Shown: in pieces, positions 10,986 through 59,250 of the stretch
Layout: each line of letters opens with the position of its first letter
How positions within the stretch are numbered: position 1 is the first letter of the stretch
DNA from: Mizuhopecten yessoensis
Taxonomy: Eukaryota
Direction of reading: 5' to 3'
Assembly: GCF_002113885.1 (NCBI RefSeq)
Contig: NW_018407979.1
Location: forward strand, 592,226-655,787
Length of the DNA stretch: 63,562 nt
Translations under genes and position numbers: made by a program
Notes under the pieces: model-generated
What the model saw: the letters and a program-made list of their open reading frames with translations, nothing else
What the model was told of the DNA's origin: nothing
The model's database searches: none

Positions 10986-11794
10986 TCACATTTGCTGAAG
11001 GCTGTTGCCAAATCTATGAATATAGTCCGTGAACTGTTTCCTTGTCAGCATGTCCATGTTCAGGGTTCGGACCCCGAAGTTTGACAGGATTGTGTCCAGA
11101 TCGTCCAGACTAGACTGGAATGTGTCGTGGAGCTTGACCTGACTGGCCCCTAGACTGGCTACCAGAGGGGTCAGGGGGTTGGAGAAGGGTTTACATATCC
11201 GTAATTTGCTGGATGCCACCGGCTTATCAGCAGGACAGACGGTCTTTGTAACCCTATCCTCCTCGTTGTCTGACTGAGTGGAGAAATGAGACAGCGTTAC
11301 TTTATGAGGCTGCACAGACAGAACACCAATGTTTACATCCTTAGCAACCCCACTCTCTTTTAACGACTTGTCTTTGATAGGAAGTTCTTCGTGTTGATTT
11401 TTAGTGTCAAGACAGTTATCTCCCTTTTTTGTTTCTTCTCCTCTTAAACTGACATCCTCCTTGTCTTCTGAAGCAGGGTCATTATTCCACTTGATGATTC
11501 TCTGCACACGCTCCTTGTCTGAAAACATCTCCTTCTTGCCATTACCCAGCTCAGATTTTAAGGGTTTTCCCTTGTCAGTTAATTTCATAAGAGATTTGTC
11601 CCCAAGAAAGTCCATCACAGTGGTGTCCTTGGTAAATTCCATGAGACACGCTGGGTGATTTGTGTGCTTATCGTAACAGTGTAAATGGAGCTGGTGACGC
11701 AGTGGGGCAGCATAGAAACAGTATACACAGCTGAAGCCAACCTCCAATGCCTCCATCTTTCTTGGATGTAATGTATAGGATGTGGACGATTTTT
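10986..11794 (-). CDS. Probable 3'-terminal coding exon of the same zinc-finger gene. It encodes a further C2H2 finger (FSCVYCFYAAPLRHQLHLHCYDKH) and a Lys/Glu/Asp-rich tail. Stop at 10986-10988.
   Basis: Acceptor ttgtttttgcag|CAG (NAGNAG) at about 11795-11797 on the minus strand. The 266-codon open frame lies downstream of the big exon on the same strand. The exon phase does not match a direct join to 13944, so an intervening exon is expected. Confidence 0.5.
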
Positions 11795-13516: not shown

Positions 13517-13943
13517 TGGTCTTGTTAAAGTAAACATTCATCTTGATCAATATTTTGTTGAATGAGTTGTATTCGTAGGAACTTAAACTAACTTTTCTAC
13601 AATATATGATGTCATCAAACATACACAAACGCGTGCCAAAGAATAACAAAGTTTCGCTGTTAATCTTACTGATACTCAATTGACATTGGTCAGGATTTAC
13701 CGCCAAAAAATAACACTTGGATGAAGGACCATAAAAGAATTGTTTTACCAACTTTGGTTAATATTTTGTGGAGCTTATAGTAAAGTTGAAAATATATAAA
13801 CCAATTACTACATTTGTCATTTAAATTCACTAATGAACAGATTATATCCATTATGGATTTTTTTTATCCATAATCAGAATCGGGAATGGCAATCGGATTG
13901 ATTTTTGATTGTAATAAATTATAATTCTACAGTGTAACTTACC

Positions 13944-16900
13944 TGCTGGTACTATCTCTGATGTCTTGACCTTTCCTGTCTTTCCCTTGCGCTTTGCAAT
14001 AAGCTGCTTGAGATTTTCCCGATCTTTCATAGAATTTAGTTTCATTTTCCACGTCTTAGGAAACTTCTTCAATTTTGGCATAGTCGGAGAAAGATCAGAA
14101 ACAGTAGAATCTGGCTCGATACTACCTTTAGAAGACTTTGGTGTAGACGAACCTTTTGGTGAGGAGATTTCTAAGTTGAGTTCTGGATCTGGTTTGACCA
14201 AGATTGCTTTTCTGTAAACTATTGGCTGCTTGTCTTTGTGATTGCGTCGAATGTGTTGAATGGTGAGAGATTTGGAGTGCGATTTATACTTGCACTCTTT
14301 ACATACCCAGTTCATGGTGTCATGTGCTAGCATCAGGTGCTGCCCAACGCCACGTACTGTCGACTCAAACGGACACTTAGGGCAACGGCCTTTCAACACC
14401 CTGGCTCTGTCTTCAGTATTTGTTATGTCCGGTGCTCCAGTTGACTTGGAAGGTGAGGATTCTGAAGAAAGATTGTACTCATAGACGTCGATCTTACTTG
14501 GAGTCTGTTGTTTGGAGGGTGATGTTTGTCCGTCGATTGATAAGGTCATGACCTTTCCCTGTAGTCCTGGAGTAGTGTCTACCTCAAGGTCTTTTAACAG
14601 ACAGAAACTCCGTACAAGGCTCACCGTCTTTCCGGGGTGCTCCTCCTTGTAGTGTGCGAGACCCTCGTATCTGTTAAGTGTGAAGTAAGTACACTCTGTA
14701 CAGGTGTACTTACACATCTTGTGTACCCAGAAGGCATGAAGCCTCACCCCGTTAATGGACTTTGACTGGTAATCACAAAGAGGACACTTTATCTTCTGTG
14801 GGTCTTTGGCTTTCACCATCACTTTAGCCTGAGACTTGGCCTTAGCTAGCTTCGAATATTTCTGACTGTACTTTTTCACATAGTTTGTCATTCTAGTGGA
14901 CTTCAGCAGGGTTGGTTTCTTCACTGAGGTTCTGGGGTTTTCTCCGTCACCTTCACTTGTGGCACAGTGACAGTTAGCCCTCCCAGGACTGGTACTCATC
15001 CTTTTTCTCTTCACATCTACTGAGCCTTCCTCTGAGGGACACTTATCACAACCTGAATGTATAACTGTTTTCTGTTCACTTTCAGAAACTTGCAATGCTA
15101 ACTTCAGCTTTTTCTTGTAAGGTCCTCTCACCATGTGTCTTTTTTCTAAATCTATGTTAGGTTTCTTTGATAACGCTGGTCTTCCTCTTTTTCGTTTTTC
15201 TGGACTGGCAGGAACGGATATTCCTGTCTCATTAAGGTCTCGCTGTTCCTCCATTGTGCTACTTGTACTGCTGGTAGAAAGTAATGAAGATGCATTATTG
15301 GATTCTGTGCGACTTCTGTTTCTCTTCGGTGGCATTGTAAGACTTTTTGTTCGCTTAACATACTTCCGTTTCACACGAGTGCCTGTGGCTGTAATGCTGT
15401 CCTGTCGCCTCTTCAGGGCTAGCAGACTATTGTTGATGGTTTCTTCTGTAAGAATACCAGTTTCGCTTGCCATTTTTCTCTGTTTCTCTAAACCCCTTGT
15501 AGCTGGGTCTGTCACACAGTCAATCTTTCTCTTTCGCCCCACCCTCTTCTTCTCTGATGACAGGGAAATTTCGGCACCTGCATTTACTTCTTCTTTCAAA
15601 TCTGAGTCTGTTTTTTTCCTTTTTGTCTCCACTAACTTTTCCTTATTTTGGATATTAACAGAAACTCCGGATCCTCTCTTAGATTTCATGACAAAGTGCT
15701 CCTGTGAACTTCCTGTAAGCTTCATTCTCATATATTTACGTTTCAAAGGACCAATGCCATGACCCCTCCCGATCCCCCTGCCCCTTCTCTTTTCTGTAGG
15801 ATCTCTCCAGGTTGGATCACCATCAGATCCACTCACTTCACTTTCCGGTACAGAGTTATCTGTTGAAGACTGGTCAGTTTCTATTTCAAATCTCCTTGAA
15901 CTTCCTCTCTTCCTACCTCTTCCACGACCAGCTTTATAGCCCAACGAATACCTCAAACTTCCTGCTGTGCTTGCTTTTGCCTCCACCATTTGACCATGGG
16001 AAAGTTTCTGTCGACGAACACCATTGTCTAAATTCAAAATTTCTCTTATGGTTTTTGTTCGTCCTTTCTTTTTCTTGTCCTCATTCTCTGTTGGTTGTCG
16101 GGTTGTATCAGGAAGCTTGGTCTGAGAGGCTTGGGAAGCCACTTGTGGACGAACCACGGTCTGTGGCTGTACAGCCATCTGTGCTGGAATTTGTGTTGGT
16201 ATCTGGGCTGGTACTTGTATAGGAATCGGCAATGGCATCTGCATTGGTACTGGAATCGCAATTCCACCAAAAGTTTGGATGAGATTGATTCTGCCGGCTT
16301 GGGTTGCTGCTTGAGCAGACATTACAGCCTCAGCATGAGGAACAGCTATCAAAGGAGTCTGGTTTCTTTGACTTATCATTTGTGGACTTACATTAACATT
16401 TCCTGTGATCTGTGATGCATTTTCTGCAGTAGAAACAACAGGATATGATCCAAGCTCAATCTTTTTCTTTCTACCCGGCCCTCTTCTTCTTGGTCCAACA
16501 ACAGGACTGATTTCAGTGACATCACCTGTAGATTGTACAGTGGGTTCATCTGGGTAAGTTACATACACATGTTCCTTTGTTTTCATAATTTTACTCTTCT
16601 TCTCTGCATGAATTTTCTTTTCCAAGCCTGACTCTGATGAATTTAATTCACCTTCGCCATCTCCAGAATGATCCATATCCTTCTTCCCTGTTGATGTCTT
16701 TGGATTTGTACTTTTGAAATGTTTGAACATGTCAAATGTCACAAGATTGCAGTCTTTGTACTTGGAAGGATTCCTTAGCACTCCACCTTCGGATTTCACC
16801 TTGCCTTCAAGGCGGATACACATTTCCAAGTACTTATCCAAGGCATTGTCCTTCTCTTTCTCAGGAGAAAACTCGTAGTTTTCAAAGCCACTGTGTCTTT

Positions 16901-18377
16901 TCTTGTTGTGGAAATTAAGTGTGGATTTGTCGGTGAACTTGTGACCACATAAGTTACACAGGAAAGGTTTATATTCAATGTTGATAGAAGCATGACGCCG
17001 GAGGTTGGTCTTGATAGGAGTGTTATACTTGCACCCTTTACACTTGTAGGACCTATAGAGTCCAGAGCCTCGGCTGTTTCGATCTGGTGTTGACAAATTT
17101 GAACAATCTGTACTGTTTGATTCATCCAGTCCAGAAGTATCGGATACATTCGGCTCAGCTTCGCCTGTGCTTTTCTCGACCACTTGTCTATCACTAGTTT
17201 CATCCAGAACAACTGCAGGCTTTTCAGTACTTGTAGGCTGTTCATCTGGTAGTGATGGTTTTGTTTGGTCATTCGTTCTAGGTTTGGTGACTAAAGCCAA
17301 GGGTTCCTCTTGTATATCTGGTATTATCTGTCCTTGATCTTTAGAGTCAGTCATTCTAGATGCACTGGATCTTTGCCCTCTACTCTGCTTTTGAACTTTG
17401 CCTCCATCCTGTGCAATATCACTCTCCTTTGAAGCTTGTGTTTCACATGTACTTTTGCCTTCATTTACTGTTTGATTCGTGGGCAATGATTGTTCTGTTT
17501 GTTGTTCAGTCAATACAGCTGAGGTTTTATCATTCGTAGTTTCTTCTTCTGTGTCTTTTTCCTGTTTGTTTTTATCGTCCGTACATATTGTTTCGGATTC
17601 TGATTCTTTTTCTTGTATGTCTGCATCTTTAGGACCACCATTGATTTTGTCTGTTGTTTCTCCCTCGGTTGCATTGCTTTCGTCTTTCTGTTGTAGAGCT
17701 GTTTTCTCTGTCGCCTCATTCACTGATGTCACATCTGGTTTTTCATCTGCCGGTTCCTTCTGTGGTAAAATTTCACATGGTGTCTCTTTGTTTGATAACA
17801 CTTCTTGTTCACTGGGTGTTGTCACTTGAGGTGTTTTTGCTTCATGTAAAATAGGTGATGTAACTTCCGGTGTATCAAGTGATGTCACTTCTTGTGTATC
17901 AAGTGATGTCACTTCCTGTGTACTGGATGATGTCACATCCTGTGAGTTTGATGATGACACTTCCTGTTTATTATCTATTTCAGTGTTGTCTACCGATGGC
18001 AGGCTTTGTTCGACATTTTGATCATTTGAGTTCTCTTCAGTGGTTTTTATAATGGCTGAACAGGGATCAGATTCTTTAATTTTCTGCTCCAACTTTTCCT
18101 CAGAACTGGCTTCCATGTCCTTTTTCTCAATTGGAGAAGGTTCGGTGCTTTGTTTTTGGTTTTCATCTTTTTTTGGATCTTCTTTCGGTTCTGTCACATT
18201 TTCCTTACTTTCAGCATCAGACTTTGCCTCTTCATTCTCTGTACCAGCACTGCCACATTGGTCAGTTACCACGCTCTCCGAGGTTGAAGTATCCGAAGAG
18301 GTTTTCTGGTCCGAGACTGGTTGCTCGCTACTGACATCATTGGCGGCTTTTTCAGCAATTGTATCAGACGTTGCCAT
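13944..18377 (-). CDS. Main coding exon (about 1478 codons) of a large nuclear AT-hook plus C2H2 zinc-finger protein. It has an acidic Ser/Thr/Glu-rich N-terminus with QEVTSLDT repeats and multiple GRP/RGRG/KRKRGRP AT-hook-like motifs. A Pro/Gln-rich block (PVPMQMPLPIPIQVPAQIPTQIP) is present. Three pairs of C2H2 fingers occur (YKCKGCKY...HNKKRH, CPLCDYQ...HYKEEH, CPKCPFE...RRNH).
   Basis: Uninterrupted 4.4-kb ORF in a 35%-GC genome. ATG at 18377 is preceded by an acceptor-like tgttttttcag (about 18437), suggesting an upstream 5'UTR exon. Consensus donor AG|GTAAGT at 13943/13942 ends the exon in phase 0. The remaining 93 nt of the raw ORF are intronic read-through. Confidence 0.8.
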
Positions 18378-19558: not shown

Positions 19559-22500
19559 TATGCTACTTATATAATATATGTTATGCAGATATTTTTATTG
19601 CCTTTCTTTGTAATGGCTGTTTAATAGAAAATTACTCAATTGGTTTATTATAATCAGTTAATATAATAATTTCTGTTTTGTTGTCTAGATTTTTCTCAGT
19701 CATGGTGTTTTGCACCTTGATTTCAGATTACTAGGTATTGTTGAGCCTTCCATATTAACTGAAGTGTAGCTGGCTAAAATATTGTTCGTAATAAGTTGCA
19801 TGTCATATTGGGACTTATAATAATAGGCTTTAGGCCAAACAAACAAATAAGTGTGTTTCATGTTATACTTTTGAAAAAATTAGGGTAGGTTAAAGGTAGG
19901 TAGGAAGGTAACTAAAAATAATTTCATATGGTTTCTATAGGAGAGTGATCTTGACTTTAACATGGTTTCTTTGATAATTGCCTGAAAAGTTTAGGGTAGG
20001 CACATAAAATTAGGGTAGGTAGGGTTACCTGGAAACACAAAATATTTTTAGTTCAGCCTTGCTGTATACACAAACCTGGTATTATTAATCAGTTATACTT
20101 GGGTGTTTATGACACCTCAATAGAAAACTGCGAGTATACAAACATCTAATTTTGTTTATTTATATATCTATACCTACACATCAATAATTCATGCCTCCTA
20201 AGTTTGAAAAGCAATGGTTATGAGCCGACACAACTCCTTATCATTCTATTTTGAATATTTTTAAATATCTCATTATTTACCCTTAATATACAGTACATCA
20301 CTGTACATGATGAATCACCTATGGTAAGTACAGTATATGTTATTTAGATAGTTGCCTCAGGTGATACATTTAAATACATGTTTAATCAGAAAAATATGCA
20401 GGGATTTTCTTATATATGCTATTTATGTCAGAATTCCTCCTTGCTATTTCCATTAAGACTTTGTATCATTTTACATAACAATCCATACAAAAAAATAGCA
20501 GTAATTTTCTTACAATGTTTTCAATCATGACAAAAAAATCATGATCTATATATAATAGCATTTACATCATACGTATGTATGCATACTTTATTCTTAAGTC
20601 TTAATAAATAAAAGTTAAAATAAAATTATGTAGCTTATAGCAGGAAGTAAAGTAGGTCAATATTGAATTATTCAATTAATCAACAGCAGCTGTACAGATC
20701 GAGACATCTGTTGTCTGTTAGCAGTATATCATGCTGAATAACTGACTAATTACTTTGCAGCAAGTTACATCATGCAGCATGTAATTCACATGCTATAAAA
20801 TAAGATTTACCTACATTTGCATACCAGCATGTCTACACATATCCTGCCATTATATACACGTAATGCAGTAGCATCATCATGTAGTACTGTAAAATATTCT
20901 TCATGTGTGAAGCAATACAACAGACTTGTAATACATATATACATAGGCATAATGAGAGAAGTATTGATTGTCAGTGGTGATTGACATAAGGCAAAGGAAG
21001 CCTGCAGTGCACTGTTATGTATACGTTAACAAAGGCACCATTTTTAGAACTAATATTATATTTATACTAATCAATATATAATATAGCGTTGCAAAGGAAC
21101 GAAACATTTCAGAGCTGTTCTGGTATTATGTATGCTATCTGTGCACACATTTATTAAAACTTTGCCGTTGAACCTGCATAGACACATCAGGTATTTAACA
21201 CTATACGGTATCCATTCACGTGTACAGTATACGTAATGGCATGTATGTAATCATACATAAACAATAATGAGTCAGAAATATTCATCCACCCGAATTACCA
21301 TTTCACGAAATTAACGCATATGGTCGCCTTTTATCGTGTGCATTATGACTATGTGAAACGCATATGTGTGTATGCATGTTGCAAATATTTGTTTATGTCA
21401 ACGAAATATGCCAATAGCTCAAATAAGGATAAGGTCATGTCCGACCGCGAGAGAGTAAGTTATTGTTTACAAGTGTAAACTGATGAGCGGAAATGGTCAA
21501 GGAGTGAAATTTGCTGCTCGCATTTATATACGCACGACCATGGTACATTATTTCATTCAACCTCTAAGCAAGAGCCACAAAACCGATCACCAGAAACTTA
21601 TATTTACCTGATTAAGTCTTGCATATTAGCTGACGTTCAGGACGTGGTCGACGAGCGTCTCTTCGGATTGGGTTGTGTATTGTGAATTTTCAAGCACTTT
21701 TCTGATCAAGAATGATTGAGTGCAGCATCAACACAAGTCTACCGATTCTCGCGATGAAAACACGTAGATGACCCAGAAAAGGGGAGATTATCAGTATTTT
21801 TTGGCGGAATATTTCAAGGTGCTACCAAAGGAGTTAAAATCAATATAACTATAACAATGAGTGAATCTGGATATAAAAATATCCCTTATACTATAACCCC
21901 CTCAGTTTTTTTTATAGTATAATGGATACTTTTTATATACATATTGCTATAGTTATATTGATTAAACGTCAGACTACAAAAAAACCACCCCTTACAGGGA
22001 CGTTTCTAGGATATTTGAAAGAGAATGAAATATTTTTTGGACCTTTTTTTTGCTAAAATACATAAAATAATTGTGAAATGCACTAATGTAACGGTTTCTG
22101 ACTTGGAGCCCATTACACCCTCACCTGGACCCGCCCCTGCCTTACACTGGTAGTTACTAACTTTTAGTGTGTACAGTATATTGATTTAACGTCAGGCTTC
22201 GAGGAACATGCAAATATGAATTATCATTTTTGTTTCTAGAACATTTGCTGCCGGACCTATGCCGACAAAATAAATAACAAATAACTGCTTCAGACGGAAC
22301 TGATGCAGACGGTATGCCTCTGAATGTTTCAAATCGTCTTTTATGTAGACCGCGGACGTAGATGACTGAGCTAATTCCGTGATATTTATAAGACCTTTTT
22401 CTTTGTGACATCGATTAATATAGACCTAATAGGGCACTAGTAGGCGCGGAGTGAAACCGTCGTAATCTGTCGACTGCAACTTTCTTATATACGGTTCGAG

Positions 22501-25329: not shown

Positions 25330-25500
25330 TTAACGCGTACTATAAGAGTTGTCTCCCTTAGAACGTAAACGGTCATCGATAAAAATAGAAGCAATGGAAC
25401 GCAATGTGATTGGTCAATCGAATGGCCACGCCCCCCTCACCGGCCTGCAGGATCTTGCTCAACATTCAGAAACTCTGCTGACGCAGCTTCAAGAACAGGT
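25330..25500 (+). promoter_or_regulatory. CpG-rich segment with an inverted CCAAT box and GC/CACCC box (TGATTGGTCAATCGAATGGCCACGCCCCCCTCACCGG), followed by a consensus splice donor (CAG|GTAAGC at about 25498). Candidate promoter plus non-coding first exon.
   Basis: Local CpG density is much higher than the flanking sequence, and the motifs are present. No long ORF. Confidence 0.3.
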
Positions 25501-26002
25501 AAGCATTCAGCATTTTTTAATTGATTTTATTTAAGTAAATCAGTGTTTTTAAATGGCTTTTAGTTTAGTGTTTAGAGTAAACTTAGTTTTAGTTATTGAC
25601 ATTTTATAAAACTGCACAGAAAATCGTCCCGAAAACGCTGCAAAACGCACGATTTTTTTTTTTACTTCCGCTTTATCGATCTGTGGAAGGGACGGACATG
25701 TTTATAAGCGTGTACTTGGAGACGCAACAACATAATTACACCGTCAGCAATTATTGTTAATATATAATAAACTTAACATTGATTAGTGTTACAATTGTTA
25801 GTGAATTGACCAATTATTGAAACTTCGTCACAATGAATTTTTCAGAACAGTGCATAATGTTAACATTTTTGAAGTTAAATTTATAGAATTTAGTAGGCCT
25901 TAGGAATTATAGAATGCACGAATTTGTCATGGAGATATATTCTTTACGAAGGTACAAAATACTGTTTTGATATCGTACATAACCCGCATTTCCTTCGGCC
26001 TA

Positions 26003-26216
26003 GGCCGTTTTCGTTTAAACGGTCAAACCGGTCGGACCACTGTTGTTCGTTTATCAAATAAGGTCGGACCTTGTAATCTGATGCTGCTTTCAGGCGAGCC
26101 TTGGCAAAGCCTTGCAAGTCCTGCATACACATTTGCAGGTCCGCCAGGATTTATACCCGACATTGTTACATTTATAAACGGTCAAACCGGCTGTTCCGCA
26201 TAAACGAACAGACCCC
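26003..26216 (+). repeat. Interspersed repeat family F copy (with subterminal inverted repeat AAACGGTCAAACCGG)
   Basis: Alignment to the other F copies. Confidence 0.5.
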
Positions 26217-27425
26217 TAATCACACAGGTACATTCTTGCACAACATTTCAGTATGACGTCACTAAGTGATCATTGCTATATTTACACACGGGTTTGTCCC
26301 AAGTACATCCCACAAAGACCTTTGATTGACATTTGAACATTTACACGGATTGCCAGAGCGTTGTGAAATATGTGTTTGTATGGTTAACATATACTGGTTG
26401 TCAGTGGCCTGTGAATAAAATAAAATAACAAATGCTGACAAAGCGCTGAATATACGTCATTCTGACAGGCTAGCACTTTTGTACCTTTAAAACCGGGAGG
26501 CATCTGAATATAGAAGTCAGTATGGGTGAATATATTTTCGCGTGAACATATACCACTGGGACACCATGACTTGACTGAAGACGACTCCCCCCTTCCCACA
26601 AGTCGCCGGCTTGTTGCTTACTATTTGGAGCTGATTTTTTTTTACTTGTGTACTGGTATTATATATAGGTAAGATTTTTTTTCGTAACTTTATTTGTCAC
26701 ATGCACAAGATCAGGACACCATTTTAAAGTAATAACTTAAAAATATTTATCAATATCAGCGGCAGTATATTCTGTAGAGGTACATCGTTATAAATATTTT
26801 ATGGTAGCGATATAGGTCTCAGATTTGTCTTTTTATATAATATATACATGTAAGTGCAATGCTGGATAAATCTATTCTAAACACTTTTCTGAGTGGTTAA
26901 GTTTGTGTTCTTATCGTCCTTTGTATGATAACATCTTAACACTTAACAGAGGATGAGGGATGCATGTAATTACACTTAATTAATACACAGTATGATATCT
27001 ATATTGGTATATCTAACATTACAGTTCAGTGTTGCTAAGTATTTTCATCCTTGTCATTTACTCAAGCAGTATTGACATTGTATCATTATCTATACATACA
27101 TGTACATTATAATGACATTTAAAATAGATTGTCAAAATATCCTTTCATATATTAGCATCCTGCAGAATTTCTAATTGTTACCAAAGTCATTTATATTTCA
27201 CGATGTATATTTCTGATTTTCTGCACATTTCTCAGTCATATATGGGTATACAATGTATATGTTCACCAACTGTGGCTTATATATCATCTTTAAACAATAC
27301 AGCAGAAAAAATTGTGATTGTAATATTCTGCTTGTTGCATCATACGGAGTGGAAGTCAGGTCTTTATCCGAAAAATAATGTATGTGTTGAACCATATCAC
27401 TAAATGTTGCATCATACTCCAGCCT

Positions 27426-27516
27426 TTAACTCATTCACCCCTGAAATTTCTTAATGAACTGTTCCAACCTTTGAACTAGAAGAGTTCAAATGTGTCTTCA
27501 GGGGTGAATGAGTTAA
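27426..27516. mobile_element. MITE family A copy
   Basis: TIRs with TTAA flanks. Confidence 0.7.
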
Positions 27517-30100
27517 TTGTGAGAGAAGTTAAGGTTTATTGAGTGAAACTTTAATATAAATATGATGCCTGTCATTTCACTTCTCACCTCACTTTATGTG
27601 ACAAACTTTCCAGATTATCTGTACTTTGTAATGCAAACACTTTAATTTCTATGTGTACCTGCATGATATACCACCAAACCAGCAATCCTGTTTCCTCTCA
27701 TATAAAGCCCCCTATGCTCTTCCATCAAGACCAAGATTGATTAAACTTGTTGATAATTGTTGTAAAATATTTATATTTAACTTGACTTAAGGTATGACAA
27801 GGGGAAGTATAAAAGGAGTACCTATTTCAATAGACGTTTATTTTTAAAAGCGAGCCAGGGGGAAGGAAGTACCCGTAATATTACCAGCTTACAGTACCTA
27901 AAAAGATAAATGTGCCGTTTGACAGTAATGTTGTACACTTGTAATCAGTGATACAGCATATAATATTTCCTTGTGAATGACTCATTCAAGGGCCTTAATG
28001 GTTGTCTATTTCCTCATTATTATCAAATAACTTCTTCCTGTATACCTGTCACTGGAGTCGCACAGTAATATCAAATAATAAGTAAATATATATTGGATAT
28101 GTTACATCCTGACTTGCTATAAGCTGCTCGAAAGCACAACACAGTACATTCATATACAATCAGTGCTAGGGCTGCAGCGATACATTAACATGACAATACG
28201 ATATGTATCACGAAACTGTGGTCACGATACGATACATATCATGATACATATAGTAACAGTAGAAGCAAGGCGAAAAGATCTGTTGCAAATTTTAATGGCA
28301 ATATTACAACTGAAAATAGACTTGGTCCTTAATGGGCATCACTTTTAAAGTTTCACTTAATTCACATCTTTTGACGTGCATGCCAAGTTTGAGCTGTCAC
28401 TCAGCATGTTTGCACCGATATGAGTAGACTAAATTCAGAATCGACAAATCCGGAAAATATTGTATGTGTATCGTAACCTCTGAACAAATATTATGTATTG
28501 TACTGCATTCAAAATATCACGTTGCAGTCCTAATCAATACAGTATTGTGTTATTAGGCACTAACTACTCAGGTTCTATGCCACCTGACTAATGTCTCCAC
28601 ATGTGTGTATGCATGTTTTTGTACTGGAGATGTGTTTTGTTCTGATTTGTAGTGGGACTTTGTTTCCAATAGGCAAAATAAATCACTGGTTGATAATGCG
28701 GTCAAATCAACCAGTAAAAATATATTCACTACAGGCTGTCGTACACGTACATGCTGTTTCATTGCATCGTAATATATGTATGTGTGTTGATTTGGGATAA
28801 TTTACTTGGTGAGGGTGCCAGCGACAGGTGTTGGGGAGCATGACTTAATTATTGATGTGAAACAAATTGGGAACTAGGTAGGCGTAAGATTTATGAAAAT
28901 TATATACAATTACTCTCGAGACAAGTTGTAATCTGTAGTCATGGTTTGATCCCTAGCGGAGGCATTCAAAAAGATAACTTGAAAAGAGGACTTGGCTTAG
29001 CCTATTATCCAATCCTTTTGTTATTTCCCCCTGGTATCAATAAGATCTGTTGAAACAAAATGAAGAGAGTAACCTTATTACAGAGCACAAGACTTGGTAC
29101 AGTATAATGTACCGTACATGTGTTTGATTCCTTTTGTCATATCAGGTAAAATTGATTATCGGATACTTGCTGTGTCATCAACAACATAAAAGCTATTGAT
29201 TTAACTATATACCAAGTACTCTTTATATAAAGTATAGAAGGGTACCTGTATAACACACATATATAAAGTAGAAGGTCGCCTGACACCTGTATACATGTGT
29301 ATCAGGTATTATCTGTTGCCCTAAAATGTTGGCACAGATCCAGATTAGTGACTCTATATAATTACACATAACTGTCTGTGCCAGACATTTCAATCTTTTG
29401 AACTTACAATAAATAAATGGTGAGCCCAATAAACGGTGTACTTTGTTAGTGTAAGGTATTTCAAAGTAGAATTATTTTTACCCTGAGTGACCTTACTCGA
29501 ATGTTCTGTCTCGCAATGTCACAAGCTTGTATGTGTACACACCTGTCTAAATTGGATATTGTATAGTTTGGAAGCTCATCAAAAACACTTCATTCATAAC
29601 TTAAGTGAATCCTACAAAATCCTTAACCTGAAGGCTGCTTTCATTTTATGTGGTCCAAAATTTTCGACCATTTTTTCTTTTTTATCGGAGTTGTTCGTTT
29701 ACGAAATAGTGACGGGCCTAGTGATTTGATGTAGCTTCCTGGTGAGCCCTAGCACTAACTTTGAAGGACTGCATCTACAGGTCTGACTGGCTTTATTCCT
29801 AAAAATAGTACATTTATAAATAGGTGAACCAGTTTGTCTGCTTAAACAAGCAGGCACTTAATAATTATAATTGCCAAACTGCTGTTGCATGGTCACTTAA
29901 ACAAAATGTCAAACTTCGTGGTAGTCAAATGTCAGATGATATTTATATTCATGCATGAACAAAAAATGATCCTAGAAGATTGACAAACATTGAAAAAGTT
30001 ATCTATATTCAGTGAAAATAGGAAGTCTAAAATCATTCACTTGTGACTACAATTTTACAAACTGAATACCTGTTTGTTTGGGCCAGGTGGAACGTGACAG

Positions 30101-30500
30101 TCACCAATCAGAATGATTTTTTTTCCAGATAAAACTTTATTTAGTCTATTATGAAACAAGTTTTATCAAATACCATTTATCAATCAGGATGTCTGTAACA
30201 GCAGATTTTCATATTGACTTGTGTCTGTATAGTACGTACCAGGAAACCAATAAAAAAACTAATGTTTGTTACTTTCGTTTCCAAAAAATATTCAAATTAA
30301 CCAATCAGAATGTCTTTTTGTTGTAAATAACCAATCAAAATGTAAGTTGTCATATCTTACCAATTATTGAATTAATAATGTCTGCGTTATATACACTACC
30401 AATCAGAATAATGTCCTATACATGTTTGATGCAAAAAATCATAAAATCATACAACCAATCAAAACGTCTTATTTGTTACAGATAACCAATCAAAATGTCC
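30101..30500 (+). promoter_or_regulatory. Array of seven CCAAT (NF-Y Y-box-like) motifs of the form AACCAATCA(G/A)AATG at about 30103, 30181 (variant ATCAATCAGGATG), 30299, 30329, 30397, 30453 and 30485. The last copy contains the MVP start codon.
   Basis: Direct motif recurrence. CCAATCAG is the classic NF-Y site. The 45-bp segment 30299-30344 is duplicated at 30453-30500. Confidence 0.5.
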
Positions 30501-30637
30501 GTCTCTCGTCGTGGAGGAGAGGAGCTGTCCTTGTTTAGGATCCCTCCCTACTACTACCTCCATGTCCTCGACCAAAACCTTAATGTTACCCGTTTGGAGA
30601 TCGGGCCCCAGACCTACATCCGCCAGGACAATGAAAG
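30495..30637 (+). CDS. MVP: Major vault protein exon 1 ([47 protein letters not shown] + first two bases of the Arg codon), phase-2 end.
   Basis: ATG at 30495 is the first in-frame ATG after a TAA stop. Donor AG|GTGAGG at 30638. The N-terminus aligns with the vertebrate MVP N-terminus (IPPYHYIHVLDQN...YIRQDNER). Confidence 0.85.
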
Positions 30638-31132
30638 GTGAGGCTTTTGCACAAAATTTACTGCAGAGGATAAACAGGTTTCTTCTGAATGTAGAATCCT
30701 GACTTGACAAGTAGCTTTTCTCTTGTTTACATTCATGGCTGATAATTCATTTTTGAAGGAGCATTTGTGGACATTTTTTTAATTGATGTACAAATTATAT
30801 TTACACTGCAAAAATGGATGTAGGGCCGGCCGGTTGCTCACAGGAACAAAAGCTCTGCCATATTTATCCTACAATAAGCCCGGGGGGCTAGTGCATAATT
30901 TCTGACTCAAAATAGGGATGGGCTTATTACAGAGAAGTTAAAATGTATTTGTTGAAATTTTATTTAAACTGAAATAGATGTGGATGGGCAGATAAATTTG
31001 GTTTCCTATTCGATTTATTATAGTGCAAACTTTTAACTGAATCGGTATATAGTGAAACATGTTTTTATTTAATTCTGTAATTCTTCAAAATCTTTGAACT
31101 CCTGTCTTATAAGAAGTGTCTCGTGTCTACAG

Positions 31133-31328
31133 GGTGGTGTTTGGGCCGGAGAAGATGATCACAGTTCCCCCGAGGAACTACTGTCTGATCGAGAACCCCC
31201 ATGTCCGCGACAAGGACAACAAGGTTGTACTGGACAACAGCGGCCAAGCCAAACTTCTCCACGCTGACCAGGAGATTCGTCTTGCTCAGGACCCTTTCCC
31301 TCTCTACCCTGGTGAGGTCTTGAAACAG
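31133..31328 (+). CDS. MVP: MVP exon 2 (R)[17 protein letters not shown]...[12 protein letters not shown]
   Basis: Acceptor tctacag|G completes the Arg codon. Donor CAG|GTAAGA at 31329. Conserved with MVP repeat 1-2 sequence ([31 protein letters not shown]). Confidence 0.85.
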
Positions 31329-31581
31329 GTAAGACAGCTTAAAATTTTCATATTTGATTGACTGAGTTCGTTTAAAGTTTAGAACATAATTGAAAGTATT
31401 TTTATATCAAATTAGCATTAATGACACCAGCATTATATAAGAATCAATGTTTTATTTCATTGAAGTTGATCTATCCAAAATATATAGGAATAAAAGTCAC
31501 TCTCTGCCATCTAGTTGTCCTTAAATGTATTTGTGAAGGTGTAATTCATTATATATTGATGATGTAAATTTGTTACTTTAG

Positions 31582-31932
31582 GTTGTGACACCCCTAAAAG
31601 TTGTGAATGCTAACTCAGCTCTCCGTCTCCGATCCATTCTCGACTTTGAAGCTGAGGATGACATTAAGAGGACTGCTGGTGATGAATGGTTATTTGAAGG
31701 ACCCGGGACTTACATCCCTCGCAAGGAGGTGGTGATTGATGAAACTGTTCGCGCCACTGTGATCCGTCCTAACCAGGCAATCCGTCTCCGGGCTCGTAAG
31801 GAGACGATCGACCGTCAGGGAACACCCCGTGTCACTGGGGAGGAGTGGCTTGTTAAGAAGACGGGAGCCTACCTTCCCGGGGCCTATGAGGAGGTGGTCG
31901 ACATCGTCAATGCTTTCGTCCTCACAGACAAG
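31582..31932 (+). CDS. MVP: MVP exon 3 [17 protein letters not shown]...[18 protein letters not shown]...[16 protein letters not shown]...AFVLTDK (117 codons)
   Basis: Acceptor ttactttag|GTT. Donor AAG|GTATGG at 31933. Diagnostic MVP repeat motifs [18 protein letters not shown] and VTGEEWLV. Confidence 0.9.
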
Positions 31933-32212
31933 GTATGGCATTGTATATCACTTACAAATAGTCATAAATGTCAGTAAAATCAAGATCTCACCTCAAATTT
32001 CTTTTCTTGGGTTATTGGAAAATTTTACTATTGGGTAAACGGGGAAATATTCACATAATGTTATTGTAATTTCACTCTGAAGTACAATATATATATACAG
32101 TGGACAGATATTGATAAAAAGTCAAGTGAAGCTGTATGCTATACTAAACAAATATAATGATGTAGTATTGATTTGCACAACTCTGTACAAAAATAAGCTG
32201 TAACTGTCAAAA

Positions 32213-32303
32213 TTAACTCATTCACCCCTGAAGACACATTTGAACCTTTCCAACTCAAAGGTTGGAAGAGTTCATTATGAAGTTTCAGGGGTGAATGGGT
32301 TAA
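32213..32303. mobile_element. MITE family A copy inside MVP intron 3
   Basis: TIRs with TTAA flanks. Confidence 0.7.
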
Positions 32304-32434
32304 GGGGGTAAAGAAGCTTTATCACCTTAAGAGACGACCAGCGATAAAGTAAATCGAGTAAATCGGGTAAAACAGGTAAAGGACATTTATTTTGAACTCA
32401 ATATTAACTTACCATTTGTTTTGGCGTATTGCAG

Positions 32435-32560
32435 AAAGCCCTTCACATGAGGTCCCTGAGAACTTTCAAGGACGACTTTGGTGTTGTGAGGAAAAACGGA
32501 GAGGAATGGTTGATCACCATGACCGAGACAGAAACTCACATCCCCAATGTTTACGAAGAG
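32435..32560 (+). CDS. MVP: MVP exon 4 KALHMRSLRTFKDDFGVVRKNGEEWLITMTETETHIPNVYEE (42 codons)
   Basis: Acceptor tattgcag|AAA. Donor GAG|GTTCGT at 32561. Aligns with vertebrate [27 protein letters not shown]...HEEV. Confidence 0.85.
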
Positions 32561-33006
32561 GTTCGTATAAAATATCTACAATTCACATATATATCTATTA
32601 TGTTGAAATATTATTTTTGATTGATTGTATATCTAAAAATTTAAGTTTAGAAATTCACAATTTCCAAACAACTTAATAATGCAGAAATATTCATATTTTT
32701 TTGGTCGCAAATTGCAATTTTGAGTGATTAATTTCCACAATCTGCAAAAAAACCCCATAAAGAATACAAGCTTAAAATCTTGGGGAAAACCTTAGAAATC
32801 TAAAACAGGAAGTACAAGTGCAAGTAATTACTGTTAGCAGCTGAAGTTAACAAGAAAGCAAGGCGAAATGTTTACATTGTTTAAACTATCACAGAAATAT
32901 ATTTGCATATCAGACGTAGCATGGAAACTTATCAGTAAGATATTGAAAATGTTTCCTGGTGTTTATCCTTTGAGTCATATCGGTTATATTCTTTCCATGA
33001 TGACAG

Positions 33007-33117
33007 GTTGTGGGTGTGGTCTCCATTACGACCTTGACCTCCCGTCAGTACTGTGTTCTTTTGGATCCCTGTGATGATTCTGGAAGGCCACAGCTCGGCA
33101 GAAAGAGGCTGGTCAAG
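33007..33117 (+). CDS. MVP: MVP exon 5 [37 protein letters not shown] (37 codons)
   Basis: Acceptor gatgacag|GTT. Donor AAG|GTAAGA at 33118. Aligns with [21 protein letters not shown]...QLGQKRVVK. Confidence 0.85.
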
Positions 33118-33235
33118 GTAAGATTTGTCGATGTCATAGAATTTGTCAGGTTTTTGGGTTGAAAGATAACAGAATATGATATCATATAATGATTATAAAA
33201 GTGAGACTATAATACTTTCATTTTGCTTAGGAATT

Positions 33236-33365
33236 TAGAATTCAATTCAAGGTCATCTGCTACAAATCATTGCATTTCAAGGTCGTCTGCTACAAATCGT
33301 TGCATTTCTAGGTCGCCTGCTACAAATCGTTGCAGTTCAAGGTCATCTGCTGCAAATCATTGCAC
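33236..33365. repeat. Minisatellite, 4 copies of a 30-bp unit (TTCAAGGTC(A/G)TCTGCTACAAATC(A/G)TTGCA) in MVP intron 5
   Basis: Direct tandem copies. Confidence 0.8.
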
Positions 33366-33633
33366 TTGAAGTATATTATGAAGATGTGGGTTGTAAATTA
33401 CATAAAAAAGTTCAGGACCGAAAAGGCCTTTGAAATTAACTGTTATCAAGACATCCCAATTTGTAATAAAAAGTCTTCAGACTGATTTTGTTTCCGTATT
33501 GAATCGAGTAAGATTAATTGAAGGGAGTGAAACTTTTTCACAGAATTTGAATAATGAGATAGATTCTAATGGATATTGATAATTGACATGGAATATATTT
33601 TGATGTTTTCCATGTTTTTACTTTTAAATTTAG

Positions 33634-33909
33634 GGAGAGAAATCTTTCTTCCTCCTGCCTGGCGAGAGTCTTGAGAGGGGTATCCAAAACATTTATGTGC
33701 TTGGTGAAGAGGAAGGTCTCATTCTCAAGGCTACTGAAACATTCAAGGACGCAGACACAGGGGAAGACCGTCGTCCCGGTGACCGGTGGATGATCCGAGG
33801 ACCTAAGGAGTATGTACCACCCACAGAGGTGGAGGTCGTCCTCAAGAGACGGGCAATCCCATTGGACGAGAATGAGGGTATCTACGTCAGGGACATCAAA
33901 AATGGAAAG
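33634..33909 (+). CDS. MVP: MVP exon 6 [33 protein letters not shown]...[21 protein letters not shown]...[19 protein letters not shown] (92 codons)
   Basis: Acceptor aaatttag|GGA. Donor AAG|GTGAGC at 33910. The near-invariant MVP motif [12 protein letters not shown] is present. Confidence 0.9.
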
Positions 33910-34383
33910 GTGAGCATCATCTCTGTGAAACAATCTTCCATCTTTACAGAAGTTCTCGGAATAATAGGGGACAATATCAACACACTTTTTAATCTTTGTC
34001 TCTCTAACTGCAATATAGACTTTATAGATATCAGGATGAGGACTTTTTAAGCCAGATTCGATTAAGCAATCATTCTGGCAAATTTTCCAAATGCTGTTTT
34101 TAAGAAATTCAAAAGAATTGATGGTTATATTATTTGCATACCTAAAATCAGTCAATTTTATCGTTTCATTCAGTGAACTTAATGAATTTCTTTGGAAATT
34201 TTGAGGGAGCATCTTTACCATTTTCAATAACTGCCTTAATAGGGTTAGTTTAAAAAACGATTTCATTATGTTTTTAGTGAATACACATGAAAATCATGTT
34301 TAAGAAAATCTGTTGTACTATTGATGCTGATAAAATATTTTGAATGGTGTAAAACGTTCACGGATCAATGTTTGTTGTTTTAG

Positions 34384-34965
34384 GTGCGTGCGGTTACTGC
34401 AGAGACTTACATGCTGAGTCACGATGAGGAATTGTGGGAGAAAGCCCTTCCCCCAGCAGTTGAGACCCTCCTAGCCCAAGGGAAGGACCCTATGGCTGAT
34501 CGGGGTGCGCGAGGACAGAGCACAGATACCACAAAGGCTCGGGACAAGACGAGGGTCATCACTTTCCGTGTACCACATAATGCTGCAGTGCAGATATACG
34601 ATTACAAAGAGAAGAAAGCTAGAGTTGTATTTGGCCCTGAACTGGTCATGCTTGGCCCTGACGAACAATTCACCCAGCTCAGTCTGTCCGGTGGTAAACC
34701 AAAGAAACCCAATTCTATCAAATCCCTTTGTCTGTTGCTTGGTCCCGACTTCATGACCGACATCATTGTCGTGGAGACCGCCGATCACGCACGACTCAGC
34801 CTCCAACTATCTTACAACTGGCATTTTGATATCAAAGACAAACTTGATGAAAAGGATGCTCACAAAATCTTCAGTGTACCAGATTTTGTTGGTGATGCCT
34901 GCAAGGCGATCGCATCCCGGGTTAGAGGAGCTGTGGCTCAAGTCCAGTTTGATGACTTCCACAAG
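34384..34965 (+). CDS. MVP: MVP exon 7 [20 protein letters not shown]...[27 protein letters not shown]...LLGPDF...[18 protein letters not shown]...[23 protein letters not shown]...FDDFHK (194 codons)
   Basis: Acceptor tgttttag|GTG. Donor AAG|GTAAGG at 34966. Long stretch nearly identical to vertebrate MVP ([49 protein letters not shown]). Confidence 0.92.
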
Positions 34966-35259
34966 GTAAGGACCATCGTCATTTTACTTCCTCTTCTACT
35001 ATTCAAACCTCCTCTCCAGAGATCACGCTTATATATTTTGTATAATTACCTGAACCTATATATGGAGGCCACATGAATAAAATAAAATCGACATGGAATT
35101 CCTAAGGGTAGTTTTGTACACAGGCTTGACTTTATCATGTTTATATATGATGAAGATCAGAAAGTGTGCTTCAGGGTCCTGGTTTTGTTGTCTGGTGGAA
35201 AGCAATGCAAAATATAGCAAAATAGCCCATATTCTTAAAATCCTTCATTCTGTGTACAT

Positions 35260-35349
35260 TTAAGCCTTTCAACACTGTGACCATAATGGACTCATCCAGA
35301 TCAATGCATGGTAGAGTCTACTAAAGTTGCATAGGGGTGAAAGGGTTAA
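35260..35349. mobile_element. MITE family B copy inside MVP intron 7
   Basis: TIRs. Confidence 0.65.
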
Positions 35350-35781
35350 ACCTGTATTCAGAGACCGCACTTTTGGTCTCATATCCCATATTCTAAATCT
35401 TATTTAGAATAAGACCTTCAGAAATTATTGGAGTGATCTATGATCGCAGGTGTTGAATCTCTCATTGATGTATGAGTCATCACAGAAATAGCGGCAATTG
35501 GGAAAGTAGAGGTGTTCTATTGAACAGGTTTTTTTAACAGTCATAGAATTTTCCCATCCATAAATTACTAAACTTTTAACTAGCTTACAAAATTATAAAA
35601 AAACATGCTTTTTGGATGTCTAGATATTACAGTAAATGTCGGTAATGAAGATATGGATAACTAATTTGCTATCTGCATCAGTTATCATTTGAAATCATGT
35701 AACAAAAACTACACCTTCAGGTTGTTGAACATTTCTTTGTGTAAGACTTTTAATATATTTGACTGTTTGATTTTCCTCTAG

Positions 35782-36237
35782 AACTCCGCCAGGATTATCC
35801 GATCCTCTGTGTTTGGTTTCGATGCGAAGGACAAGGTGCGGGACCAGTTCGTGTTTGGTCAGAACTGTCTGGTGATGACAAGCATTGACATTCAGTCTGT
35901 GGAGCCAGTCGACCAGAGGACACGTGATGCCTTGCAAAAGTCAGTCCAGCTCGCCATCGAAATCACCACCAACTCACAGGAGGCTACAGCTAGACACGAG
36001 GCTGAGCGTCTTGAACAGGAAGCCAAGGGCCGTTTGGAACGACAGAAAATCAGCGATGAGGCAGAAGCTGAAAAGTCGCGTAAGGAACTTCTGGAACTGC
36101 AGGCCAACAGTGCGGCCGTGGAGAGTACCGGTCAGGCCAAGGCAGAGGCTCAGTCCCGGGCTGAGGCCTCGAGGATCGAGGGAGAGGCTGCCGTTGAGCA
36201 GGCCAAACTCAAGTCCATGGCTATGAAGATTGAAGCC
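35782..36237 (+). CDS. MVP: MVP exon 8 [18 protein letters not shown]...[31 protein letters not shown]...[18 protein letters not shown]...KIEA (152 codons; shoulder/cap-helix region)
   Basis: Acceptor tcctctag|AAC. Donor GCC|GTAAGT at 36238. [37 protein letters not shown] and [14 protein letters not shown] match vertebrate MVP almost residue for residue. Confidence 0.92.
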
Positions 36238-36419
36238 GTAAGTATTTTGTAGAGATCAAGACATAGTTGTATTAAATGTCATAGCTTATTGGTATGTTAG
36301 GAAAATATTGAATTATCTTAAAAATTAAACCAGTGCATTTTGGTATTATTCAAAATACTCTCTTTTCAAATATTTAATAAATAACTGATAAAAGACTTTT
36401 GAGATGCTTTAGGAAAAAT

Positions 36420-36860
36420 CCAAAATTTTATTTATAGCATATGCCAACCTGTCTATAAAGGGAAGTTACTCCTCTTTTATCAAATACAGCCTGTAAACCT
36501 GGCTGTCTATAAAAGGGAGCCAAATCATGTTATCTTTATATAATAATAAACAACATTTGACAAAGCCCCTTATCTAGCTAACATAAGCCACTCTAAAGCG
36601 CTTTACAATGAGTAAAGCTCTTTAAATAGGAGTGTATTGACTTTTATTCCATATAACATTCTATAATAGGAAATGAATTCAGTTTTAATATAAGGGAATA
36701 AACCTACCTGCCTTTAACAGGAGCAACTTTTTTATTCCTTATATCTCCCTGTAAACAGGGTTAACTGTTTATTCCCTAGGTTTACCTGTCTATGAAGGGG
36801 AGATAATACCACTTCAGTATAATGTCTGCCTGTCTATAAAGGAGACCTGTCTATAAAGGT
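36420..36860. repeat. Six dispersed copies of the motif (G)CCTGTCTATAAAGG(G/A)GA within MVP intron 8
   Basis: Motif recurrence at 36452, 36503, 36782, 36829 and twice around 36840-36870. Confidence 0.6.
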
Positions 36861-36951
36861 GACCTGTCTTTGAAGCACAAGATTTTTGTATGAACATTTT
36901 GACTTCTTTTAACACAAATATCTTCAACTATAATCTGATTACATTTTATAG

Positions 36952-37290
36952 GAGTCTGAGTTGGAGAGACTGACCAGTGCCCGGGAGGCTGAACTGAAAT
37001 ACGTCCGTGAGCAGAATGACATGGAACTCACAAAATCAAAGGAAATGTCCAACATCGAAACCGATAAGTTCAAGAAGATGGTGGATGCTATTGGAGCCAA
37101 CACACTCCAGTCCATTGCAGTGTCTGGACCGGAGATGCAGGTCAAGATGTTGACTGCGCTTGGGCTAAAGTCCACACTTATCACAGATGGTAGCAGTCCA
37201 ATCAATCTATTCAACACGGCCAACGGGTTAATTGGAGGCCTAGTTCCATCTAAGAGGCGTCATGCTCCCGCGGACTCTGATGAGGATTAA
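36952..37290 (+). CDS. MVP: MVP exon 9 (terminal) [18 protein letters not shown]...[74 protein letters not shown], stop TAA 37288-37290
   Basis: Acceptor ttttatag|GAG. Conserved C-terminal coiled-coil motif [28 protein letters not shown]. Total CDS about 859 aa against 893 aa for human MVP. Confidence 0.9.
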
Positions 37291-38930
37291 AGGGTAGATA
37301 ATTTGAAGAGTAATTAATCTCCCCTGAAACCTCTCGGTGAAGACTGTGTGACAGAGTATGTGTATAGATATCATTTTAACTCTATTTAACATAATTTATA
37401 CCGTTTGTTGAAGCCTGTTGTTCCTCTCATATTTTTGTGTTCTACAATCAAATGTGAGAGTTGTATCAAATAATTGTGATACAAGTTACTTTTCAAGAGT
37501 GTTTGTCGGATCAAAGATTAATCATGCTCCGGCATTCATTGGGACCATGAAGACACTTGAAGCTAAATGAGGTTTCGAGATTATGCTTGTTTAATATATT
37601 TGGGAACAAGGAATGGCTTGTAATACCAGAATATATCTACTTTTTAAATCATATTCTGTTATGTATGATTGCTAAGGACACAAACAACAGTCATTCACTC
37701 AACTTATGGGTTGTAGGAACTTCTCGAAATTTCTTGTGCATTTAAAATTTACATTTATACATGCATGACAGTCTTGTTACAAATACAAAAAAAAAAGGTA
37801 TACTGCATCTTTTAATTTTGTACTTTTTATTGAATTCTTGTGTTAATTGTTTTCATTTTTTGATGCATGATTAGAGGGTAAAATTGTGTATTAAAGGTTT
37901 TACTATAAGTGCAATTACTACATTGAGAGAAGAGCATGTGTGATAGACTAGGGTTTAATTTTCATTTTCATAACTCGGACAAATAATATATATATGTATA
38001 TATTTAAAATCGACCCCTTGACTTCAGCTGGAGAGCTTGAATATTAGTTAGCAAACCTCCAAATGACAACTGAATATGATGGACACAGAAATGTAAAATA
38101 AACAATAATGATGATGACATGCCAGCTAAGTTGACAGTCCCCAGTTATAGTGAAAGGGTCTATGTGATGCATGATAACCTAGTGATTAATTTCATTTTCA
38201 TAATCATGGAAAAAAACTAGATATTGATTCCTATCCTGCTTATTAAGCCTCCCAACTGCTTTCATAATATATATAAATATCATTTTTGTGATTCTGTTGT
38301 TGGTATTGACTTTCATGATAGTGCTGACAAGTTTTTGTTGTTGTTTATAGGTTTGAAGTTGTTTCTGTTTTGATATCGTTTTTGTACAATCTTGGACAAT
38401 TGTCCTTTCTCTGTGATAGAATCAGTGCACTACTCTCATGACAATATATTTACTTGTATCAACAAGGTATCGAGACAACATTTATATTTATATTTCCTTT
38501 AATTTATACACATCCGTTAACACTCCAGTCGTGAGTTAAATGGACATATGTTGACAAACTGAATTAGTGTTTGTGAATTCTATTAAAATCTGAAACTAAA
38601 TTATTGTTCAGTGTTTTTATTTATCATAAATGTAACTTATACTGAAAAACTTTTGCGTAGTAAAATATTCGACCGTTCACTGGTGAAAATCTTTTCTGCC
38701 GTCTTTATTGCTAAATTTGGAATATTGTGCACTATTATTTGCTGTAGAATGCAAAGGGCGACCAAGGCTGAAGTTAAACTGCGGTTAAAGTTACCCATAT
38801 ACATCTATCCGTCACTTTAGTGCCTGTTCAACAGAATTGTATAAAAAATGAATATAGTATGCACTTACATGACAGCATGACTCCAGCAACGTGACCTACC
38901 CAGGGATTACCCTTACCCTGGGCCGTTTTC

Positions 38931-55450: not shown

Positions 55451-56107
55451 TAAAAAGTTGACGATGGACGACGGACGCCGCACCATGGCATAAGCTCACT
55501 TGGCCAGGTGAGCTAATAAGAAGGGGATTCCAATCACAACACAGCCGACACGCCTGAACTTTGTTGTCACTGTAACCTCTCTCAATATATCAAATCCACA
55601 TGATGCTAATACATGTATACCTTTACACAAAATGAGTGCATTATCAGATTGGTTTATTTTCGATACAAGTACCAGCAAATGGGAAATTTTCACCCTCATA
55701 ATGCTTTTCTTTCTTATATCCACTCATCAACTGGAGAGTGAATTCAACCTTGGCTCAAAATGTGGAATTAGGGTGATTACCTCAGTATTGATTTTCTTTC
55801 CAAATTTACTTTATATATATATATATACAATGTACATATAGGGCTATTTCTCGAAATAACTCATCTACAAAATCTGTTTAAAAACCAGAGTTATGGGCTT
55901 ATAAAGGACAAGTCATATAAAAGATGTATTTTGAGTTGGTGCTCTAACATCAATCGGTACAATTTTCCAAACTATTATTTCAAAAAACTGAATGATATAC
56001 ATGTACTTGATTAATTCAGTATTCATGCAGAAATTTGAATTACATGTATTACAGTGTAGGAGATTTAAAGAGACCAAAGAAAGTATGTTTAACAGTTGAC
56101 AACTTAC

Positions 56108-59173: not shown

Positions 59174-59250
59174 CTAGCCTTGTCTGTCAATACACCCATA
59201 ATATAATATGAGTATATATATTATATTATGAGTGTATTGACAGACGAGGC
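59174..59250. repeat. Hairpin with about 36-bp arms (CTAGCCTTGTCTGTCAATACACCCATAATATAATAT / ATATTATATTATGAGTGTATTGACAGACGAGGCTAG)
   Basis: Reverse-complement identity. Confidence 0.75.

Follow-up and report, generated by a model that had tools for sequence, protein, structure and literature searches.

The 63,562-nt stretch of DNA analysed here (contig NW_018407979.1, hereafter the window) carries on its plus strand, between 25.4 and 38.1 kb, what we hold with a probability of about 0.97 to be the single-copy gene for the major vault protein (MVP) of the Yesso scallop, Mizuhopecten yessoensis. An earlier note on this DNA, made from the sequence alone, had described a complete MVP gene of nine exons at 30495-37290, joined in a consistent phase at GT/AG sites and encoding 859 amino acids (aa). 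We placed the exon borders by reading window positions 30000-37800, and checked them independently with a brute-force splice search that accepted only translations equal to the database protein. Both approaches gave identical coordinates for all nine coding exons, bearing out the earlier description of the coding sequence (CDS). The first coding exon (30495-30637) lies within an exon spanning 30482-30637, in which 13 nt of 5' untranslated region (UTR) precede the ATG at 30495; an in-frame TAA is situated 12 nt 5' of this ATG. It is followed, all on the plus strand, by exon 2 (31133-31328, 196 nt), exon 3 (31582-31932, 351 nt), exon 4 (32435-32560, 126 nt), exon 5 (33007-33117, 111 nt), exon 6 (33634-33909, 276 nt), exon 7 (34384-34965, 582 nt), exon 8 (35782-36237, 456 nt), in which the shoulder domain ends and the cap-helix coiled coil begins, and exon 9 (36952-37290, 339 nt including the TAA stop). 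Reading of the sequence found GT...AG at each of the eight coding introns. The resulting CDS of 2580 nt is open throughout and encodes 859 aa followed by the TAA stop, and GC content is 52.0% in the exons vs. 31.5% in the introns. An antisense open reading frame (ORF) of 242 aa at 33538-34266 was treated as spurious because it has no Pfam match and overlaps exon 6.

The product is residue-for-residue identical (859/859 aa) to the MVP of M. yessoensis in public databases (XP_021364753.1, XP_021364754.1, OWF44899.1, and A0A210Q890). The window is therefore Yesso scallop DNA, the gene is already known, and the hand-built model of the earlier note reproduces its public annotation; relative to these records there is no difference at the protein level, and what the present analysis adds is a leader exon, a promoter and an intron history. 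The exon structure, domain content and identity of the protein are established by several lines of evidence. All Pfam matches were far over their gathering cut-offs: Vault (1.6e-64, four stretches), Vault_2 (3.6e-34, two stretches), Vault_3 (2e-35), Vault_4 (4.8e-21), which together represent the N-terminal array of MVP repeat domains, and MVP_shoulder (PF11978, 8e-53), which covers aa 521-639 and the full 118-position profile of the SPFH-like shoulder. The five peptides that had been quoted as diagnostic of MVP are all present, at aa 146, 383, 532, 564, and 636. A protein search returned 2891 homologs at E<=1e-50, and the five MVP Pfam domains occur in 120/120 homologs among the matches listed, the named ones being mostly MVP or MVP-like. 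The top homolog is an Argopecten irradians MVP-like protein with 94% identity, while those of other molluscs have 80-85%. The nearest relatives are thus annotated MVPs, and the positions of the introns are common across phyla, as expected for an ortholog.

The solved rat and human MVP chains (e.g., PDB 4V60, 4HL8, 2QZV, and 7PKR) resemble the scallop protein in the order of repeat domains, shoulder, cap-helix and cap-ring, and align with it in one uninterrupted stretch (aa 10-842 vs. 4-850, E=0, ~1238 bits). The C-terminal cap-helix coiled coil and cap-ring are colinear with those of solved MVP, and aa 744-842 separately match the C-terminal MVP fragment 9z5n_B. The differences are minor: the scallop protein has six extra N-terminal residues, its loop after aa 608 is 10 residues shorter (two gaps), and its C-terminal tail after aa 842 is unrelated. 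Together, the Vault and MVP_shoulder matches, the structural alignments and the exact database match confirm the earlier identification of the gene as MVP.

As a statement about the CDS, the description of a complete nine-exon gene stands; as a statement about the gene it does not, because a non-coding leader exon located ~5 kb upstream had been overlooked. The transcript evidence for this exon consists of three independent transcriptome contigs of A. irradians (L002-L004), which we mapped to the genomic locus of that species (L001). These transcripts contain nine coding exons at positions orthologous to those in the window, and the same intron positions and phases are found in four scallop genera, thereby supporting all eight of the proposed coding introns and their junctions. 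Upstream of the coding exons there is a non-coding exon at L001 6496-6589, with the donor ...AGAACAG/GTAAGC (the slash marking the splice junction), which is joined to the ATG exon at the acceptor ...TGTTTCAG/ATAATCAATCAAAATG. The leader exon is present in L003 and L004, and L002 has only its last seven bases, across the same junction. The A. irradians transcript matches window positions 25412-25509 at 85.7% identity. The 3' end of the exon in the window reads ...CAAGAACAG/GTAAGC (AACAG/GTAAGC), so that the exon ends at 25498, and at the ATG exon the window has TATTTGTTACAG/ATAACCAATCAAAATG, which places the end of the intron at 30481 and the start of the exon at 30482, 13 nt before the ATG. 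Hence, based on the orthologous transcripts, we assign a 5' UTR leader exon of ~87 nt to 25412-25498 on the plus strand (its 5' end being approximate and its 3' end exact) and a leader intron of 4983 nt to 25499-30481 (GT...AG, plus strand), whose donor and acceptor are conserved. Since the leader exon is spliced over 4983 bp, we infer from the orthologous transcripts and from conservation that the gene has at least 10 exons and that its promoter is near 25.4 kb, rather than just 5' of 30495.

The sequence of the leader exon is itself highly conserved. Its 58-nt core (25441-25498) has 82-95% identity among the four scallop genera, whereas its flanks (the preceding 80 bp and the initial 40 nt of the intron) have 48-66%, and the core equals or surpasses the coding exons in conservation (80-89% nucleotide identity). 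Consensus folding of the leader exon gave a weak structure (-7.95 kcal/mol) with no compensatory pair, leaving an explanation by RNA structure unsupported; the constraint is therefore more likely to be on DNA or on protein-binding sequence. Within the exon, TGCTGACGCA is invariant in the four genera, occurs only once in the window and resembles, by its sequence, a Maf/antioxidant response element (ARE) half-site. A full ARE reading of TGCTGACGCAGC, at 25476-25487 in the same exon, is weakened because the ...GCACC of Argopecten breaks the terminal GC of the TGACnnnGC core.

The alternative that survives best is that the nine-exon gene is complete as it stands, with transcription starting in an array of CCAAT motifs immediately 5' of 30495, and that the element at 25.4 kb belongs elsewhere. 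Six same-strand ACCAATCARAATG motifs, each an NF-Y-type CCAAT box followed by ATG, crowd the 400 bp before the start codon (30103-30497, plus strand, at the 3' end of the leader intron). All six matches in the 63.5-kb window are found here vs. 0.45 expected, and the final copy holds the MVP start codon. RefSeq, moreover, has two transcript products for the one protein sequence, and a second 5' end is possible. However, all three A. irradians transcript assemblies splice from the upstream leader exon, and the window preserves both the donor of that exon and the acceptor TTGTTACAG/ATAACC. Nor is the array itself conserved: there is no strict copy of ACCAATCARAATG in Argopecten or Ylistrum, and only two, 31 nt apart, in Pecten. 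The upstream motifs of the array also each hold an ATG, and would thus introduce upstream start codons if they were transcribed. On balance we consider this alternative improbable and prefer a gene that begins with the leader exon. Units such as TTGTTGTAAATAACCAATCAAAATGT look like a duplicated module of acceptor and start codon, and the Mizuhopecten-only array could have arisen by repeated duplication of that module; it could also supply the second RefSeq transcript with a promoter or enhancer specific to this lineage.

For a gene that begins with the leader exon, the predicted core promoter is at 25375-25436 on the plus strand, where motifs are conserved amid diverging sequence in the four genera that we compared, i.e., Mizuhopecten, Argopecten (L001), Pecten (L005), and Ylistrum (L006). 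This candidate promoter comprises three elements: the TATA-like ATCGATAAAAATAG is at 25375-25388, the inverted CCAAT box GATTGG is within 25406-25415 and the GC box GGCCACGCCCCCC (CACGCCC) is at 25424-25436, and each is conserved in all four genera. In A. irradians the transcripts have their 5' ends at the position of the ATTGG. The TATA-like ATAAAAATAG, conserved in scallops, is ~23 nt 5' of the 5' end of the longest Argopecten transcript and, in the window, ~33 nt 5' of the point homologous to that end. The human MVP/LRP promoter (Lange et al. 2000, summarized in PMC3216873) is described as having a GC box and an inverted CCAAT box but as being TATA-less. Both boxes have conserved counterparts at the scallop leader exon, whereas the conserved TATA-like ATAAAAATAG sets the scallop promoter apart, and the likeness between the two promoters is one of motifs. 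For human MVP/LRP, a connection with NRF2 has been suggested solely on the basis of in-silico sites (PMC8992493). A scan for sigma-70 promoters and terminators was uninformative, being irrelevant to a eukaryotic locus.

Conserved non-coding sequence also occurs outside the leader exon and promoter. Within the leader intron, a block (~26225-26370, plus strand), with counterparts at L001 7162-7217 and L005 6746-6880, contains an invariant palindrome of the cAMP response element (CRE) type, TGACGTCA, followed ~15 nt downstream by the TATA-like GCTATATTTAMACA and then by GGGTTTGTCCCA; judging by these motifs the block may act as an enhancer within the intron or as an alternative (second) promoter. 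A further block at 21585-21817, ~3.6 kb 5' of the leader exon, has 74% identity to Argopecten and 79% to Ylistrum, and could be a distal regulatory element or the UTR of an adjoining gene. Downstream of the CDS there is a third block, at 37875-38484. We rejected the possibility that the blocks at 21585-21817 and 37875-38484 are overlooked coding exons because neither has an ORF of >=60 aa. That scallop MVP is under a conserved, stress-type regulatory module that has hitherto not been described is a tentative idea, and one that we think doubtful; such a module would consist of the almost invariant leader exon with its Maf/ARE-like TGCTGACGCA, the intronic block with the CRE and, in Mizuhopecten alone, the CCAAT array.

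At its 3' end the gene has a predicted UTR at 37291-38120 (plus strand), the extent of which is inferred only. Polyadenylation could be signalled by ATTAAA at 37890 or by AATAAA at 38097. Both lie in the block at 37875-38484, which lacks a long ORF and shows conservation with Pecten and Ylistrum. In Argopecten the transcripts omit 727 bp of the 3' UTR (L001 16899-17626), with flanking alignments that overlap by 32 nt, which suggests an indel bounded by direct repeats or an insertion polymorphism, and not a normal intron.

Taken in sequence, the features described above indicate how the gene may be expressed. Transcription most likely starts at ~25.41 kb, the ~87-nt leader is then spliced over the 4983-bp intron to the ATG exon, and removal of eight further GT-AG introns yields the 2580-nt CDS. 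Its 859-aa product has the complete MVP architecture, in which the N-terminal array of MVP repeats is followed by the SPFH-like shoulder, the long cap-helix coiled coil and the cap-ring tail. By homology to rat and human MVP, it should form the 78-mer vault shell. Several points weigh against this picture of the gene. The leader exon, the transcription start site and the poly(A) site rest on cross-species evidence (Argopecten transcripts), and the transcription-factor motif assignments are consensus matches only. Also, the vault partners vault RNA, TEP1 and PARP4 are not within the window, although linkage to MVP is not required; in the case of vault RNA, Rfam gave no match in the 63.5 kb either at gathering or at E<=1.

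We consider it highly improbable that the locus is a non-functional or redundant copy, i.e., a pseudogene or an assembly duplicate. One portion of the gene does occur twice in the assembly, as the partial protein XP_021344753.1 (230 aa), which is encoded on a contig of 4.5 kb, matches aa 1-230 with 100% identity. However, the ORF in the window is intact, without a frameshift or premature stop, its splice sites are canonical throughout, and conservation among scallops is restricted to exons (80-89% nucleotide identity), the introns being unalignable. The copy in the window is also on a contig of 1.1 Mb, and it is the 4.5-kb piece, which corresponds to coding exons 1-3, that is a redundant assembly fragment, and not a paralog. 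Equally hard to credit is the proposal that this MVP homolog has been recruited mainly to a non-vault role, e.g., a secreted or structural one as reported for the salmon louse, the title of one paper (PMC11219742) naming MVP among the constituents of a crustacean's extracellular cement: the shoulder and cap-helix regions for lateral docking are highly conserved, the protein is colinear with rat MVP end to end, and Pfam and the structure alignment revealed neither an N-terminal extension past six residues nor an additional domain. The locus is, therefore, that of an intact and typical MVP ortholog, and an ordinary gene.

The number of coding exons differs considerably among animals. We projected exact spliced MVP models from nine species onto one protein alignment, describing the position of each intron by residue and phase (aa.phase). 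There are nine coding exons in all four scallop genera, 12 in Mytilus, 13 in both Lottia and Saccoglossus, 14 in Solemya, and 17 in Nematostella. The eight coding introns common to the four scallops are at 47.2, 113.0, 230.0, 272.0, 309.0, 401.0, 595.0, and 747.0, and every one of them is common, in position and phase, to at least two non-scallop species in the panel; this comparison shows all eight to be ancestral. Solemya, a protobranch bivalve, has the same eight introns and, in addition, introns at 154.1, 351.0, 480.2, 546.2, and 665.2, which the scallops lack. Lottia has all five of these, and Saccoglossus and Nematostella each have four, the exception being 351.0, near which their closest introns are at 349.0 and 352.0. 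The nine coding exons are therefore a derived, intron-poor state that arose through five losses on the scallop lineage, because Solemya and Lottia keep the five extra introns and four of these are also kept in deuterostomes and cnidarians. The sites of two lost ancestral introns, 480.2 and 546.2, are within what is now coding exon 7. Four of the five lost introns are not in phase 0, vs. one of the eight that scallops have kept (Fisher one-sided p=0.03); we regard a preferential loss of non-phase-0 introns in Pectinidae as a curiosity and not as a firm result.

It had also been claimed that every MVP intron carries its own repeat. The four repeats that were named are all real, but the general claim was overstated because notable repeats are confined to four of the eight coding introns, and Tandem Repeats Finder (TRF) gave nothing above trivial scores in introns 1, 2, 4, and 6. 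Intron 3 has a family A miniature inverted-repeat transposable element (MITE) of 91 bp (32213-32303, no strand assigned), with TTAA at both ends and 20-nt terminal inverted repeats that are 95% complementary. Intron 5 has a minisatellite (33246-33371, no strand assigned) with a 30-bp unit in 4.2 copies and 87% matches, and intron 7 has a family B MITE of 90 bp (35260-35349, no strand assigned). Intron 8 has a dispersed array of five CCTGTCTATAAAGG-like motifs (36448-36859, plus strand; 0.36 expected by chance), along with a 17-bp tandem unit in 2.4 copies at 36829-36869. Another family A MITE is in the leader intron, at 27426-27516. None of these repeats is at an orthologous position in the other scallops, in which the alignable sequence consists of exons and a few non-coding blocks. 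The intronic MITEs, minisatellite and motif arrays are therefore lineage-specific insertions, with no indication of function.

The division of the MITEs into families A and B proved sound, as the 16 copies in the window separate cleanly, nine of them belonging to A and the other seven to B. These elements of ~91 bp, a further example of which is at 4153-4243, extend from 3627 to 49663 in the window at a density of ~1 per 4 kb, and TTAACCCWTTCACCCCT, the motif at their termini, occurs there 34 times vs. 0.39 expected. Nearly all 16 copies have TTAA at both ends, and the termini are TTAA/CCC...GGG/TTAA in family B (the slashes here marking the element's ends) and CTC...GAG or GGG in family A. 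The combination of TTAA with CCC...GGG termini is the known signature of piggyBac, and the TTAA may thus be a target-site duplication and the elements putative piggyBac-type MITEs. An element in the Pecten maximus locus (L005 24718-24809) matches one of the family A copies with 89% identity, and the MITE family is therefore older than the split of Mizuhopecten and Pecten. A search of the window with Rfam gave nothing at gathering, with no snoRNA or other family in or near the gene. Its sub-threshold "miRNA" matches at E<=1 were rejected as hairpins of MITEs or of other inverted repeats. One hairpin of ~85 nt, at 59168-59256, has sub-threshold matches to several unrelated miRNA families on both strands (the best scoring 43.6 bits vs. 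a gathering value of 100), and is most likely another inverted-repeat element, not an miRNA.

Other features in the window include a 1508-aa uninterrupted ORF on the minus strand (13851-18377), whose product is rich in Ser, Thr, and Lys and has a weak hint of a C2H2 zinc finger (zf-H2C2_5, E=0.007, under cut-off). It coincides with a strongly negative AT skew at 14-18 kb. Downstream of it, an ORF of 256 aa (10986-11756, minus strand) may share its gene. An ORF at 55913-56356 (minus strand) has a SAP_RNF34_RFFL domain (6.4e-12, over cut-off) and, by this match, is probably an exon of a gene for an RNF34/RFFL-like E3 ligase.

MVP is widespread in eukaryotes and sequences from bivalves were already known (Daly et al. 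2013; PMC3762200). The same study found that vaults have been lost in insects, fungi and, probably, plants, in agreement with the remark in the earlier note that vaults are missing from some model groups. We therefore do not present this gene as new: the position of the leader exon and promoter, the history of intron loss and the conserved non-coding blocks are refinements of an annotation and not discoveries. It is of some methodological interest that a nine-exon CDS was rebuilt exactly by reading of the sequence without tools. The locus can also serve as a clean MVP reference for its group, from which proteomic studies of stress and pollutants have repeatedly reported the protein.

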